17,704 nucleotides of DNA from a candidate division WOR-3 bacterium (GCA_039803745.1 JBDRZD010000039.1:1-17704); one strand, 5' to 3'; counted from the first letter of the stretch, positions 12,767 through 17,607 are shown. Translations and numbers: made by a program. The notes: generated from the sequence alone by a model not told the origin.

Positions 12767-14056
12767 ATGACACAGATTGAATTTGCAAGAAAAGGTATTA
12801 TTACAGAGGTAATGGAAAAAATAGCAAAAGATGAAAATGTCAGTCCAGAATTTATAAAAGAAAAAGTTTCTGAGGGTGAGATAGTTATTCCCTTTAATCC
12901 AAATCATAAATCCCTTAAAAAACCATGTGGTATAGGGAGTGGTTTGAGAACAAAGATAAATGCAAATATAGGAACTTCCTTTGATTATGTTAATATTGAT
13001 GAAGAAATTGAAAAACTAAAAGTTGCAATAGAGTATGGTGCTGATACAGTTATGGATTTGTCAACAGGTGGTGACTTAAAAAAAATAAGGGAAAAAATAA
13101 TTGAAAATTCGATAGTTCCTGTTGGAACAGTCCCAATTTACGAAGCAGAGATAAGAGCAGCACAAGAAAAAGGAAGCATTTTTGAGATGACACCCTCTTT
13201 ACTTTTTGAAGTGATAAAGGAGCATGGTAAATCGGGTGTGGATTTTATTACTGTTCATGTCGGGATTACTCTTGAAAGTTTGAAAAGATTGAAGAATCAA
13301 AAAAGGATAACAGGAATTGTTTCAAGGGGAGGTGGGCTTTTGGCAGTCTGGATGATGCATAGTAAAAAAGAAAATCCCTTATATGAAAAATTTGACGAAC
13401 TTCTTGATATAGCAAGAGAATATGATATGACTTTAAGTCTTGGTGATGGGTTAAGACCAGGTAGTATTATTGATGCAACTGATAGAGCCCAGATAGAGGA
13501 ATTAATTTTGCTTGGTGAACTTGTTGAAAAAGCAAGAAACAAAGGGGTTCAGGTAATGGTTGAAGGACCGGGACATATTCCGATAAATGAAATTAAAATG
13601 AATGTTGAGATGGAGAAAAAATTCTGTAAAAATGCGCCATTTTATGTCCTTGGTCCGCTTCCCTGTGATACAGGTGCCGGTTTTGACCATATTGTTGGTG
13701 CAATAGGTGGTGCACTTGCTGCAAGTTATGGAGTTGATTTTTTATGTTATGTAACTCCTTCAGAACATTTAGGATTACCAAAGGTAGAAGATGTTAAATA
13801 TGGTGTTATTGCATCAAAGATTGCTGCTCATATAGGTGACCTTGCAAAGGGTATAAAATCTGCCTGGGAAATGAATAAAAAACTTTCAGAAGCAAGATAT
13901 AAACTTAAATGGGAAGAGGAATTTAAATATATGCTTTTTCCGGAAGAGGCAAAAAAGATATTTAAAGAAAGAAAATCAGAAACAAAGGCTTGCTCAATGT
14001 GTGGCCCTTTTTGTCCGATGAATCTTTTTGAAGAATATATAAAAGAAAGAATTTGA
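12767..14056 (+). CDS. thiC: Phosphomethylpyrimidine (HMP-P) synthase ThiC, short form
   Basis: TKINANIGTS, GADTVMDLSTGG, VGTVPIY, GIVSRGG, LSLGDGLRPG, QVMVEGPGH, PFYVLGPL, LCYVTPSEHLGLP, C-terminal Fe-S motif CSMCGPFC. The thiD/thi4/thiE context favours ThiC over the Bza paralogues. Confidence 0.93.
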   Translation: MTQIEFARKGIITEVMEKIAKDENVSPEFIKEKVSEGEIVIPFNPNHKSLKKPCGIGSGLRTKINANIGTSFDYVNIDEEIEKLKVAIEYGADTVMDLSTGGDLKKIREKIIENSIVPVGTVPIYEAEIRAAQEKGSIFEMTPSLLFEVIKEHGKSGVDFITVHVGITLESLKRLKNQKRITGIVSRGGGLLAVWMMHSKKENPLYEKFDELLDIAREYDMTLSLGDGLRPGSIIDATDRAQIEELILLGELVEKARNKGVQVMVEGPGHIPINEIKMNVEMEKKFCKNAPFYVLGPLPCDTGAGFDHIVGAIGGALAASYGVDFLCYVTPSEHLGLPKVEDVKYGVIASKIAAHIGDLAKGIKSAWEMNKKLSEARYKLKWEEEFKYMLFPEEAKKIFKERKSETKACSMCGPFCPMNLFEEYIKERI

Positions 14057-14071
14057 ATTAAGGAGGATTAA

Positions 14072-14665
14072 ATGGAAGTAAAGGTTCCTGAATATAAAAT
14101 TTTAGAGAAAATAAAAGTAAAAAAAGAAGAAAGCGCTCTTATAATTATTGATATGCAAAATGATTTTGCAAAACCTTCAGGTAAACTTTTTGTTCCTGAT
14201 ACACAAAAAACAATCCCTTTTATTAAAAAAATTCTGGATAAAGCAAGAAAAAATAAAATAAAAATATTCTTTACTCAGGACTGGCATACAAAATATGACC
14301 CTGAATTTAAGATATGGGGAGAGCATGCAGTTGCAGGAACTTATGGAGCAGAAATAATTGAGGAACTTAAACCTTTAGAAGATGAATTTTTAATTAAAAA
14401 ATTGAGATATGATGCATTTTTTGGTACACCTTTGGATATTTATTTAAGAGCCTTTAATATAAAAACTCTTATAGTTTGTGGTACAGTGGCAAACATATGC
14501 GTCCTACATACCGTAGGGACAGCCTGTTTACTTGGATATGATGTTATTCTTCCAGTTGATGCAATTTCTGCTATAACAGAATTTGATTATCATTTCACAT
14601 TAAGACAGATTGATTTTCTTTATAAAGGCAAACTTGTAAAAAGTGAGGGAATTGAAATAGAGTGA
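14072..14665 (+). CDS. Isochorismatase-family cysteine hydrolase, nicotinamidase (PncA)-like
   Basis: Catalytic Asp (IIDMQNDF), Lys (IKKLRYDAF) and Cys (GTVANICVLHT); metal-ligand pattern QDWH...WGEH as in PncA; SD AAGGAGG at 14060-14066. Confidence 0.85.
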   Translation: MEVKVPEYKILEKIKVKKEESALIIIDMQNDFAKPSGKLFVPDTQKTIPFIKKILDKARKNKIKIFFTQDWHTKYDPEFKIWGEHAVAGTYGAEIIEELKPLEDEFLIKKLRYDAFFGTPLDIYLRAFNIKTLIVCGTVANICVLHTVGTACLLGYDVILPVDAISAITEFDYHFTLRQIDFLYKGKLVKSEGIEIE

Positions 14666-15463: not shown

Positions 15464-16252
15464 ATGATATTTGCAAAAAAAGGAGAAAGTGAAGTTACAA
15501 AGGCGATAGTTGAAAGTTTTCTCTCAATGTTTAAAGAATCTATAAAGTCTCAAGTTATAATAATTGGTGGAGGACCAGCAGGGCTTACCTGTGCAAGGGA
15601 ACTTGCAAAAAATAAAATAAATGTTCTTGTAATTGAAAGGAATAATTATCTTGGTGGAGGTTTCTGGATTGGTGGATACTTTATGAATAAAGTTACATTC
15701 AGGGCACCCTCAAATGAATATCTTGATGAAATAGGTGTAAAATATGAGAAGGTAGAGGAGGGACTTTTTGTTTCTGATGGTGCTCAGGCATGTTCAAAAC
15801 TTATAGCAGCCGCCTCTGACGCAGGTGCAAAATTTTTACAACTTACAGATTTTGAGGATGTTATAATAAGAGAAAAGGATGGAAAAGCAAAAGTTGCAGG
15901 TGTTGTTGTAAACTGGTCAGGAGTGAAAGGACTTCCAAGACAGATTACCTGTGTTGATCCAGTCGGTCTTGAATCAGAATTCGTGGTTGATGCGTCAGGG
16001 CATGAAGCCCATGTTATAAAAGCACTTGAAAAAAGGGGATATATAAAAACAAAAGGGATGGGAGCGATGTGGGTTGAGGCATCAGAGGATGCGGTTGTTG
16101 AACATACAGGAGAGGTATTTCCTGGACTCATCGTTGCAGGAATGGCAGTTTCAGAAACTTTTGGACTTCCAAGAATGGGACCAACTTTTGGGGCAATGCT
16201 TTTATCAGGTAAAAGAGCAGCAGAAATCATTTTAAGTAAAATTAAATATTGA
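15464..16252 (+). CDS. thi4: Thi4/THI1-type thiazole (ADT) synthase with an active-site Cys
   Basis: IIGGGPAGL, ERNNYLGGGFWIGG, LPRQITCVDP (Cys163), DASGHEA, GMAV...GLPRMGPTFGAMLLSGKRAA; SD AAGGAGGT at 15452-15459. Confidence 0.95.
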   Translation: MIFAKKGESEVTKAIVESFLSMFKESIKSQVIIIGGGPAGLTCARELAKNKINVLVIERNNYLGGGFWIGGYFMNKVTFRAPSNEYLDEIGVKYEKVEEGLFVSDGAQACSKLIAAASDAGAKFLQLTDFEDVIIREKDGKAKVAGVVVNWSGVKGLPRQITCVDPVGLESEFVVDASGHEAHVIKALEKRGYIKTKGMGAMWVEASEDAVVEHTGEVFPGLIVAGMAVSETFGLPRMGPTFGAMLLSGKRAAEIILSKIKY

Positions 16253-16968
16253 AATTAATTATATCAGGACCTGATTTTGAAGATATAAATTATAATGAAA
16301 TTATAAATTTTGTTAAAAAATTTAATTTTGATGCTCAAAAAGAAGAAGATTTTCTTTTAAAATTTTCTCAATATGATTTTTTACCGGAAAAATTTGCAAA
16401 AATCAGAGTTTTAGATCCTTATAAAAAGGAATTGAATGAAGAGCCTCTAGAATTAGAAATAGAGTATGAAAGATCAAACTTAAAAAGAAAAAATAGAAAA
16501 AGAGGAATTATATACAGCGGCAATCACTTTGTTAAAATTCTTAAAGAATTACTTAAAGAAAGACTTGATTTAAAAAAAGAATGGGTAATCTATTTTTCTG
16601 ATCAACTTTTAAGCACTTTTGAGGATAGATGGCATATAAGGGTTATAATTTTTGGTATTCCAGTAGTTATTTCTGTGCCTGGAATTGTATATGGTCCTGC
16701 AAGGGATAGAGAATATTATTTAGCAAGAGAAATGGGCTTTAATTTAAATTGCGATTATATAAAAGAAAAAGATGAAAGAAAGACAGATGTGTTAAAAGGT
16801 TATATTTTGCAGGCGATTTACTTTTATAAATGTCTTTATGAAAATAAGGAATTCAAATTTTGTGAAGATGAAAATTGTTCTATTTATAATTCTCATTGGC
16901 AGAGAGAAGTTTTAAATGCACAGTTAAAGCAAAATCTATGTGAAAAACATTTAAAAGAGTTTTTTTAA
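16249..16968 (+). CDS. Uncharacterised protein resembling DUF6775 (archaemetzincin-like putative metalloprotein)
   Basis: TTG start in a TTGA overlap with thi4; LLSTFEDRWHIRVII.G.P.VISVPGIVYGPARDREYY, DERKTDVLKGYILQAI, FCEDENCSIYNSHWQREVLNAQL...LCEKH. Family assignment is from recall. Confidence 0.7.
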   Translation: MKLIISGPDFEDINYNEIINFVKKFNFDAQKEEDFLLKFSQYDFLPEKFAKIRVLDPYKKELNEEPLELEIEYERSNLKRKNRKRGIIYSGNHFVKILKELLKERLDLKKEWVIYFSDQLLSTFEDRWHIRVIIFGIPVVISVPGIVYGPARDREYYLAREMGFNLNCDYIKEKDERKTDVLKGYILQAIYFYKCLYENKEFKFCEDENCSIYNSHWQREVLNAQLKQNLCEKHLKEFF

Positions 16969-17607
16969 ATGAAAAAATTAGGTCCTTTATATGGAATAGC
17001 AGGAACGGATATTATAAAAGATAATTTTTTTTATAAAATTGAAAGAGCAATTTTAGGTGGTCTAAATGTATTTCAGTTAAGGGAGAAAGGCAAGGATAAA
17101 AAAGAAATAATTTCTATTGCCAAAGAAGTTAAAAAAATATGTGATGCTTATAATTGTGTTTTTATAATAAATGATGACCCTTATATTGCAAAAGAGGTAG
17201 ACGCTGATGGTGTGCATCTTGGTAAATATGATATTGAAATAGAAAAGGCAAGAGAAATTGTTGGTAAGAATAAAATAATAGGGATATCCTGTTATGATAG
17301 TCTTGAAAGGGCAATTGAGGCAGAAAGAAAAGGTGCAGATTATGTTTCTTTTTCCTCTCCTTTCCCTTCTCCAACAAAACCTTTAAAACCTTTAACAGAC
17401 TGGGAAAGAGTAGAGGAAGCAGTAAAAATTTTAAAAATCCCTGTTTATTTAATAGGAGGAATAAATAATCAAAATATAAAAGAAGTTTTTAAAATAAAAA
17501 TTTATGGTATATGCTCAATCTCCTATATTTTTAATGCAGAAGATCCTTTCTTTAAAGCTTTTGAATTAAAAGAATTAATCTATTCTTCTTTTGCTCTTAA
17601 TCTTTGA
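16969..17607 (+). CDS. thiE: Thiamine-phosphate synthase
   Basis: LYGI, FQLREK, FIINDD, ADGVHLG..D, IIGISC, GADYV, FPSPTK, PVYLIGGIN. Confidence 0.93.
   Translation: MKKLGPLYGIAGTDIIKDNFFYKIERAILGGLNVFQLREKGKDKKEIISIAKEVKKICDAYNCVFIINDDPYIAKEVDADGVHLGKYDIEIEKAREIVGKNKIIGISCYDSLERAIEAERKGADYVSFSSPFPSPTKPLKPLTDWERVEEAVKILKIPVYLIGGINNQNIKEVFKIKIYGICSISYIFNAEDPFFKAFELKELIYSSFALNL

Follow-up and report, generated by a model that had tools for sequence, protein, structure and literature searches.

The described gene clusters closest to the one analysed here are of two kinds: operons that carry ThiG, ThiS and ThiF under a thiamine pyrophosphate (TPP) riboswitch, and clusters in which a 'suicide' Thi4, an ADP-thiazole synthase of the cysteine (Cys) type, is followed by a gene for a DUF6775 protein. 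The second kind was described by Oliveira-Filho, Van Gelder, Obe, Voiniciuc, Wilson and Hanson (bioRxiv 10.1101/2025.09.23.678117; ACS Omega 2026, PMC13325395). These authors expressed four DUF6775 proteins, all of which were insoluble, and detected no metal in a preparation made from inclusion bodies; they also report for non-suicide Thi4s a clustering with TRASH proteins, which bind metal, a parallel pairing, and their Table S3 has an entry, a candidate division TA06 bacterium, in which DUF6775, ThiE and ThiC lie near Thi4 (PMC13325395). Here we describe a thiamine gene cluster in the DNA of a candidate division WOR-3 bacterium (GCA_039803745.1, JBDRZD010000039.1:1-17704). The window, as we call the whole stretch of 17,704 nucleotides (nt) that was analysed, is an entire 17.7-kb contig with a GC content of about 30%, taken from a metagenome-assembled genome of 1.67 Mb and 93.5% completeness. 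Eleven genes lie in tandem on its plus strand: rpsS, rplV, rpsC, rplP, rpmC, thiC, a pncA-like hydrolase gene, thiD, thi4, a DUF6775 gene and thiE.

The locus resembles the published suicide-Thi4/DUF6775 clusters in having a Cys-type Thi4 and then DUF6775, in the predicted archaemetzincin-like fold of the latter, with a conserved Cys3His set and no HEXXH motif, and in the lack of ThiG in the genome. It differs from them in that no sulfur-relay gene is present in the cluster, a nicotinamidase gene is included, and the cluster is fused to ribosomal-protein genes. With the ThiG/ThiS/ThiF operons it shares the pyrimidine branch and the coupling step (thiC, thiD and thiE), whereas its thiazole comes from Thi4, and neither ThiG nor a TPP riboswitch was found in the window or the genome. 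A preliminary description of this DNA had taken the arrangement to be undescribed, but the Thi4-DUF6775 pairing is already in print, where the role of DUF6775 is a hypothesis. Another feature peculiar to this locus is that its thi genes, without a riboswitch, are fused to ribosomal-protein genes. We favour, with a probability of about 0.6, a reading in which a riboswitch-less thiamine operon stands behind five ribosomal-protein genes, DUF6775 acts as a helper of Cys-type Thi4, and pncA is coupled to thiD in a manner specific to one order. By family membership, ThiC yields hydroxymethylpyrimidine phosphate (HMP-P) and ThiD the diphosphate HMP-PP, the Cys-type Thi4 turns NAD together with glycine into ADP-thiazole and nicotinamide, and ThiE couples the two halves.

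The evidence for the Thi4 partnership comes from two samples. In 41 genomes of the class, this one included (because of their kinship the counts are not independent of one another), Thi4 is present in 24, DUF6775 in 11, all from one order, and ThiG in one. The key position of the 24 Thi4s is occupied by Cys in 15, His in eight and Pro in one, and DUF6775 occurs alongside 11 of the 15 Cys-type enzymes and none of the nine others. The second sample consists of 80 metagenome loci found with a DUF6775 alignment. A Thi4 open reading frame (ORF) lies directly upstream of DUF6775, on the same strand, in 59 of them; the other 21 comprise ten loci with less than 700 nt upstream of DUF6775 and 11 with at least 700 nt upstream and no Thi4. 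The key residue is Cys in 53 of the 54 neighbouring Thi4 ORFs that exceed 200 residues, five shorter ORFs having been dropped. Of the earlier proposal, the specific genomic tie of DUF6775 to Thi4 is borne out by both samples (59/80 and 11/15).

The genes that flank DUF6775 are mostly sulfur-handling, consistent with the published paper. The 128 flanking ORFs scanned include HcyBio (11), a ThiI-like PP-loop protein with NFACT-R_2 (12), PALP (six), class-V aminotransferases (five), MnmA (three) and MOSC (three). FeoB, a ferrous-iron transporter, flanks one DUF6775 locus, and ThiE adjoins DUF6775 in just one of the 80 metagenome loci, which is itself of this lineage. The ThiI/PP-loop-like protein, of about 334 residues and with a carboxy-terminal NFACT-R_2 RNA-binding domain, flanks thi4-DUF6775 in 12 metagenome loci (L133, L135, L154, L157, L167, L173, L175-L177, L179, L183 and L186), several of which may be near-duplicates. 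In two loci NadA (quinolinate synthase) is encoded directly downstream of thi4-DUF6775 (L147:1337-2254; L161:2510-2929); this neighbour could mark a link to NAD, or could merely be another Fe-S enzyme among sulfur genes. Six related loci among the 11 just mentioned with DUF6775 and no Thi4 (L129, L131, L138, L139, L142 and L145) have an ORF of about 300 residues, without a Pfam family, ahead of DUF6775. The one such ORF that was translated (L129:2531-3430) has a signal-peptide-like start, and a divergent GT4 glycosyltransferase gene lies upstream in four of the six (L129, L131, L142 and L145).

The Thi4 of the window is, as judged from its residues, of the cysteine ('suicide') type, for which a single turnover is predicted. 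In an alignment with 4y4m, an enzyme from a methanogen, its Cys163 (context I-T-C-V-D-P) stands opposite the His. In PMC4215014, Cys165 of the Haloferax volcanii enzyme HvThi4 is the essential counterpart of yeast Cys205; the context T-C-V-D-P, read for HvThi4 from the C165A primer given there, is shared by HvThi4 and the window protein. The NCBIfam model TIGR00292 is named 'sulfide-dependent ADP-thiazole synthase', yet this Cys-type Thi4 passes it; automatic annotation would therefore mislabel the mechanism. The Thi4s that precede DUF6775 in metagenomes are close to one another, with 58-67% identity to the window protein and a mean column identity of 77%. At least 90% of them have extra cysteines at positions 110 and 118 (window numbering), where the window protein itself has Cys110 and Ser118.

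The AlphaFold2 model of DUF6775, built with an alignment of 133 sequences, has an average pLDDT of 97.1. Archaemetzincins are the only strong matches when this model is used in Foldseek (2x7m, E 3e-5; 3lmc, E 3.7e-4), and a comparison of features in the ESM Atlas retrieved nothing but hypothetical proteins and clusters of Peptidase_M54, with scores of 0.83-0.90. A sequence search against solved structures gave a best E of 0.45. Archaemetzincins (Peptidase M54; 2x7m, 3zvs, 3lmc) are only 8-15% identical to DUF6775, in which their HEXXH...G motif is replaced: HExxH occurs in one of the 133 relatives, and the place of the archaemetzincin HEXXHXXG, mapped with the motif as quoted in PMC13325395, is filled in the window protein by Leu187-Gln188-x-x-Tyr191, residue 191 being Phe in most relatives. 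An active Peptidase M54 metallopeptidase was considered and rejected; the fold is there, whereas HEXXHXXG is not. What has been kept is Cys205-x4-Cys210 with Cys231-x2-His234, the three cysteines invariant and His234 present in 129 of 133. Other invariant or nearly invariant residues are Glu70, Glu74, Tyr89, Arg127, His129, Arg131, Ser142, Gly145, Asp175, Arg177, Gln188, Asn214, His216 and Gln218. On the strength of the model, DUF6775 is predicted to be a protein of metzincin fold in which the catalytic His-Glu-His is gone and only a Cys3His remnant of the archaemetzincin Cys4 zinc site is left. No domain fusions of DUF6775 were found among proteins of 420-2000 residues, which is weak evidence, and a complex prediction for Thi4 and DUF6775 scored 0.31 against a mark of 0.32; run without controls, it counts neither way.

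The pncA-like hydrolase shares with nicotinamidases of the archaeal or thermophile metal-motif class an Asp-Lys-Cys triad, Asp/His/His ligands, the D-x-H-x3-D-x-E motif and a Trp. Its residues D27, K110 and C143 (triad) and D70, H72 and H85 (metal site) align with those of 3s2s, a putative nicotinamidase of S. mutans; D27 is kept in 80 of 81 relatives, and D70, H72, H85 and C143 in all 81. The stretch D70-W-H-T-K-Y-D76-P-E78 fits the 'Archaea DXHXXXDXE' class, one of the nicotinamidase metal-motif classes distinguished in PMC5531466, and Trp82 stands three residues ahead of His85, like the Trp83 that is described there as needed for a low Km. G137-T138-V139 aligns with G-V-L of 3s2s, at the place expected for a Gly-preceded cis-peptide pair four residues ahead of the catalytic Cys; a cis bond is invisible in sequence. 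Triad, metal ligands and motif class being all present, the preliminary description of this protein as nicotinamidase-like holds, and we consider it very probable that the hydrolase is a true nicotinamidase. The differences from the archaeal class are a score below the cut-off for E. coli-type PncA and the position of the gene, inside a thiamine operon and overlapping thiD.

The conserved neighbour of this gene is thiD. Isochorismatase-family genes are found in 34 of the 41 class genomes; pncA is directly upstream of and overlaps thiD in all ten assessable genomes of the order (the four of the genus, G004 and G005-G009; G010 was left out, since its gene is cut by the contig end), whereas in other families of the class none of the 14 loci has thiD adjacent to pncA. 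In G005-G009 the order is DUF6800 - pncA - thiD - (class-IV aminotransferase) - RtcB, with thi4-DUF6775 on another contig. Since pncA stays beside thiD there, it is thiD to which the gene is tied. Of the 80 DUF6775 loci, one contains an isochorismatase-family ORF, again the one of this lineage, and the family is missing from the 128 flanking ORFs scanned. Around the closest hydrolase relatives in species genomes no thi gene lies within 8 kb in 79 of 80 loci, in a scan that was pattern-based, missed the order's own genomes and was not exhaustive; the neighbours are mixed (ECF S-component 3, penicillin amidase 4, NAPRTase 1), and 33 of 62 scanned ORFs have no family. Two further neighbourhoods of orthologues are recorded here. 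In G023 the nicotinamidase orthologue is 3 nt upstream of a gene for NAD-dependent DNA ligase (L223:9091-11663), another NAD-consuming neighbour, and an AIR-synthase-like gene beside the G031 orthologue proved not to be ThiL. Literature searches, judged by titles and abstracts, returned no relevant paper on a coupling of nicotinamidase and thiD.

We therefore read the hydrolase as a housekeeping pncA coupled to thiD rather than as a general Thi4 accessory. It is the sole isochorismatase-family gene in the genome, and a nicotinate phosphoribosyltransferase is encoded on contig C5 (NF006415, 486 bits, cut-off 243); this archaeal-type enzyme surfaced through a QRPTase_C search and NCBIfam, the Pfam NAPRTase model having no match in the genome. 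PncA would then be the cell's single archaeal-type nicotinamidase, feeding the remote phosphoribosyltransferase. It could also clear the nicotinamide released by Thi4, though it would not be a general part of Thi4 chemistry.

The operon itself is compact (Table 1). Genes were assigned from ORF calls and Pfam/NCBIfam profile scans, the GTG and TTG starts being mechanical ORF calls. From rpmC to thiE the spacings computed from the coordinates are 14, 15, -4, 1, -4 and 0 nt, and the two 4-nt overlaps fall at hydrolase/thiD (GTG start of thiD) and thi4/DUF6775 (TTG start of the DUF6775 gene). The tight run from thiC to thiE claimed earlier, with gaps of 0-15 nt or 4-nt overlaps, is thus confirmed by ORF calls and family scans. 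The order from rpsS to rpmC and on from thiC to thiE is kept in all four genomes of the genus and in one metagenome contig (L127); the arrangement is therefore not due to chance. The contig ends 97 nt past thiE. In a sister genome the gene that follows thiE is convergent, so that the unit probably ends with thiE.

Table 1. Positions in the window of the ribosomal-protein and thiamine genes, with the profile matches behind each assignment
Feature	Position	Strand	Evidence
rpsS, rplV, rpsC, rplP, rpmC (S19, L22, S3, L16, L29)	10831..12752	+	Pfam/NCBIfam matches
thiC, HMP-P synthase (radical SAM)	12767..14056	+	PF01964 E 4.6e-193; NF009895 648 bits, cut-off 410
pncA-like, probable nicotinamidase; isochorismatase-family cysteine hydrolase	14072..14665	+	PF00857 E 4.1e-44
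thiD, HMP/HMP-P kinase	14662..15462	+	TIGR00097 336 bits, cut-off 205
thi4, ADP-thiazole synthase, predicted cysteine ('suicide') type	15464..16252	+	PF01946 E 2.1e-68, 230.5 bits, cut-off 26.2; TIGR00292 247.4 bits, cut-off 148.3
DUF6775/DUF7001 protein	16249..16968	+	PF20565 E 3.3e-53, 181.2 bits; PF22529 E 5.6e-51, 173.8 bits; cut-off 27 each
thiE, thiamine phosphate synthase	16969..17607	+	TIGR00693 178.5 bits, cut-off 145; TenI model 82 bits, cut-off 251

The rpsS-rpmC block probably shares a transcription unit with the thi genes. No Rfam family reached its gathering score in the window, RF00059 was not found upstream of thiC, and the genome as a whole gave no TPP riboswitch match at E<=0.001. 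Promoter-like sites (30, against 28.2 expected) and terminator-like sites (five, against 3.6 expected) at 10500-17704 are uninformative, and three hot-spring metatranscriptome runs gave 0, 0 and 1 reads on the same interval, too few to test expression. As stated in the preliminary description, the window lacks thiG, thiS, thiF, tenI and Nudix genes, none of which was matched by its remaining ORFs. A whole-genome search, in which ThiH and ThiO were not included, found no ThiG, a single ThiS-like gene and a single ThiF-like gene on other contigs (C5 and C68), and thiL on contig C7. Nudix has only two matches in the genome (contigs C8 and C15), neither in nor beside the thi genes, and TenA has no match in the genome at its 93.5% completeness.

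Several features of the surroundings are recorded for completeness. The run of ribosomal-protein genes extends from rpsS to rpmC and is preceded by a divergent archease gene (window 10308-10730, minus strand), and the pncA-thiD unit of family f2 (L218, L221 and L222) has, downstream of thiD, a gene for an RtcB ligase. Archease activates RtcB, and the placement of archease beside the ribosomal/thi unit and of RtcB beside pncA-thiD may be a coincidence. In G004 two ORFs without a Pfam family separate rpmC from thiC (L234:6346-7811). On the minus strand of the window, positions 1017-2396 encode a 459-residue RqcH-like protein with NFACT-N and NFACT-R domains, beside a nucleoside diphosphate kinase gene. 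Other minus-strand genes encode a sodium:solute symporter, an MCP-domain protein with GAF, an SPFH/NfeD pair and a MoxR ATPase, and a cation efflux ORF lacks the first 65 or so positions of the Cation_efflux profile.

Several observations weigh against the favoured reading. Four genomes with a Cys-type Thi4 (G023, G028, G032 and G036) are without DUF6775, which is therefore not obligatory, and DUF6775 stands without Thi4 in 11 metagenome loci whose upstream sequence runs to 700 nt or more. In G004, DUF6775 adjoins thiE and is 16 kb from thi4, a placement in keeping with a step that comes after Thi4 and before ThiE. The conserved Arg127-His129-Arg131, Ser142, Glu70, Glu74 and Asp175 could form a site for phosphate, diphosphate or metal, so that a hydrolase is conceivable. 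For the pncA-like protein, the best matches among solved structures are 3eef (E 1.6e-31; its deposited name is 'N-carbamoylsarcosine amidase related protein') and 3hb7; both are uncharacterised as far as the literature search showed, and no paper joining 3EEF with nicotinamidase was found. The protein falls short of the E. coli-type PncA equivalog NF008623, scoring 60.8 bits where 174 are required, and the best stretch matched is residues 20-74 only. Finally, a selected link of pncA to the Thi4 by-product is possible, since the order that couples pncA to thiD also has Cys-type Thi4 and DUF6775, and in family f1 pncA is two genes before thi4.

Of the competing explanations, the one that survives best concerns the nicotinamidase gene: its position would carry no functional meaning, a compact genome packing unrelated genes together and the overlaps making pncA-thiD hard to split. 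The thi genes follow rpmC by 14 nt without a riboswitch, so that tight packing does join unrelated functions here. Family f2 retains the pairs pncA/thiD and thi4/DUF6775, exactly the two that have 4-nt-overlap junctions in the window; such surviving pairs fit translational coupling or mechanical linkage as well as they fit shared function. Orthologues of pncA in other families of the class stand in unrelated contexts, and, as the genome has no second nicotinamidase candidate, general NAD salvage must fall to the hydrolase. Against this, pncA and thiD are adjacent in every assessable genome, across two families, and the thi4/DUF6775 overlap is broken in G004, so overlap alone does not fix a pair. 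We give this explanation a little under even odds.

The published hypothesis, in which DUF6775 is a metal reservoir or metallochaperone for the mononuclear metal site of Cys-type Thi4 (PMC13325395), bears on the other accessory gene. The invariant Cys205, Cys210 and Cys231 with His234 form a predicted metal site, and both the pairing of non-suicide Thi4s with TRASH proteins (PMC13325395) and the FeoB gene at one locus are in its favour. However, Cys3His maps to CX4C...CXXC of the archaemetzincin motif, which suggests a buried structural site rather than an exchangeable one; the published inclusion-body preparation contained no detected metal (PMC13325395), and the flanking genes handle mostly sulfur, not metal. 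We regard the hypothesis as doubtful. In the favoured reading DUF6775 would be a non-catalytic helper that acts on something peculiar to Cys-type Thi4. That it reloads sulfur, by persulfide delivery or by repair of the dehydroalanine left after turnover, is the role we would tentatively place first, at rather less than even odds; that it loads metal into Thi4, as the authors propose, seems to us unlikely, and that it disposes of spent Thi4 quite improbable.

A dedicated support module for Thi4, as proposed in the preliminary description, would have the hydrolase recycle nicotinamide and DUF6775 hydrolyse or release ADP-thiazole for ThiE. DUF6775 does lie between thi4 and thiE in the window and stays with thiE in G004, its conserved Arg, His, Ser, Glu and Asp residues could bind diphosphate, and both genera of family f1 have pncA inside their thi cluster. 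The distribution argues otherwise. His-type Thi4s make the same ADP-thiazole product as the Cys-type, and DUF6775 accompanies none of the nine non-Cys Thi4s of the class; because the His-type enzymes go without it, we argue that DUF6775 is probably not the ADP-thiazole hydrolase. Beside DUF6775, ThiE and isochorismatase each appear in one of the 80 metagenome loci, both of this lineage, and in five genomes pncA is with thiD and apart from thi4. The metzincin catalytic motif has been lost from DUF6775, and two Nudix genes are present elsewhere in the genome; hydrolysis of ADP-thiazole would more likely be the work of another enzyme, for example one of these two Nudix proteins. The support module as a whole is improbable in our judgement, and hydrolysis or release of ADP-thiazole by DUF6775 has a similarly low probability. 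Of that proposal the partnership of DUF6775 with Thi4 and the nicotinamidase-like nature of the hydrolase have stood. Product release found no support, DUF6775 occurring only with Cys-type Thi4 and lacking the metzincin catalytic motif, and neither did the hydrolase as a Thi4 accessory, being absent from 79 of 80 DUF6775 loci and remaining with thiD when the cluster is split. DUF6775 tracks Cys-type Thi4, whereas the hydrolase tracks thiD within one order.

A bolder reading would see the whole layout as a selected design, in which co-transcription with ribosomal-protein genes, in place of control by a TPP riboswitch, provides the stoichiometrically spent Cys-type Thi4 in proportion to growth, DUF6775 re-arms or loads it for more than one turnover, and the nicotinamidase clears an inhibitory by-product back to NAD by way of the remote nicotinate phosphoribosyltransferase; we hold this to be very improbable. 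Least probable of all is that the hydrolase has as its substrate a pyrimidine amide of HMP salvage (it might, for example, deformylate formylaminopyrimidine) and so feeds ThiD: its conserved partner is indeed the salvage kinase gene thiD rather than thi4, and the family, to judge from the names of solved relatives, hydrolyses many small amides, but every nicotinamidase-specific metal and active-site residue is present, ThiC supplies HMP-P de novo, and nicotinate phosphoribosyltransferase is encoded without another source of nicotinate, while a formylaminopyrimidine deformylase in particular was dropped because TenA, needed for the next salvage step, was not found in the genome.

The coupling of nicotinamidase and thiD is a small, lineage-specific curiosity. 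The function of DUF6775 is of wider consequence, as it bears on whether 'suicide' Thi4s truly die after one turnover, a question of interest to those who engineer thiamine synthesis. That DUF6775 keeps to Cys-type Thi4, as independent data show here, leaves fewer hypotheses and counts against an ADP-thiazole hydrolase. With a 4-nt thi4/DUF6775 overlap, no sulfur-relay gene nearby and a full set of thiC, thiD and thiE, this lineage is a minimal, self-contained test case for the partnership.

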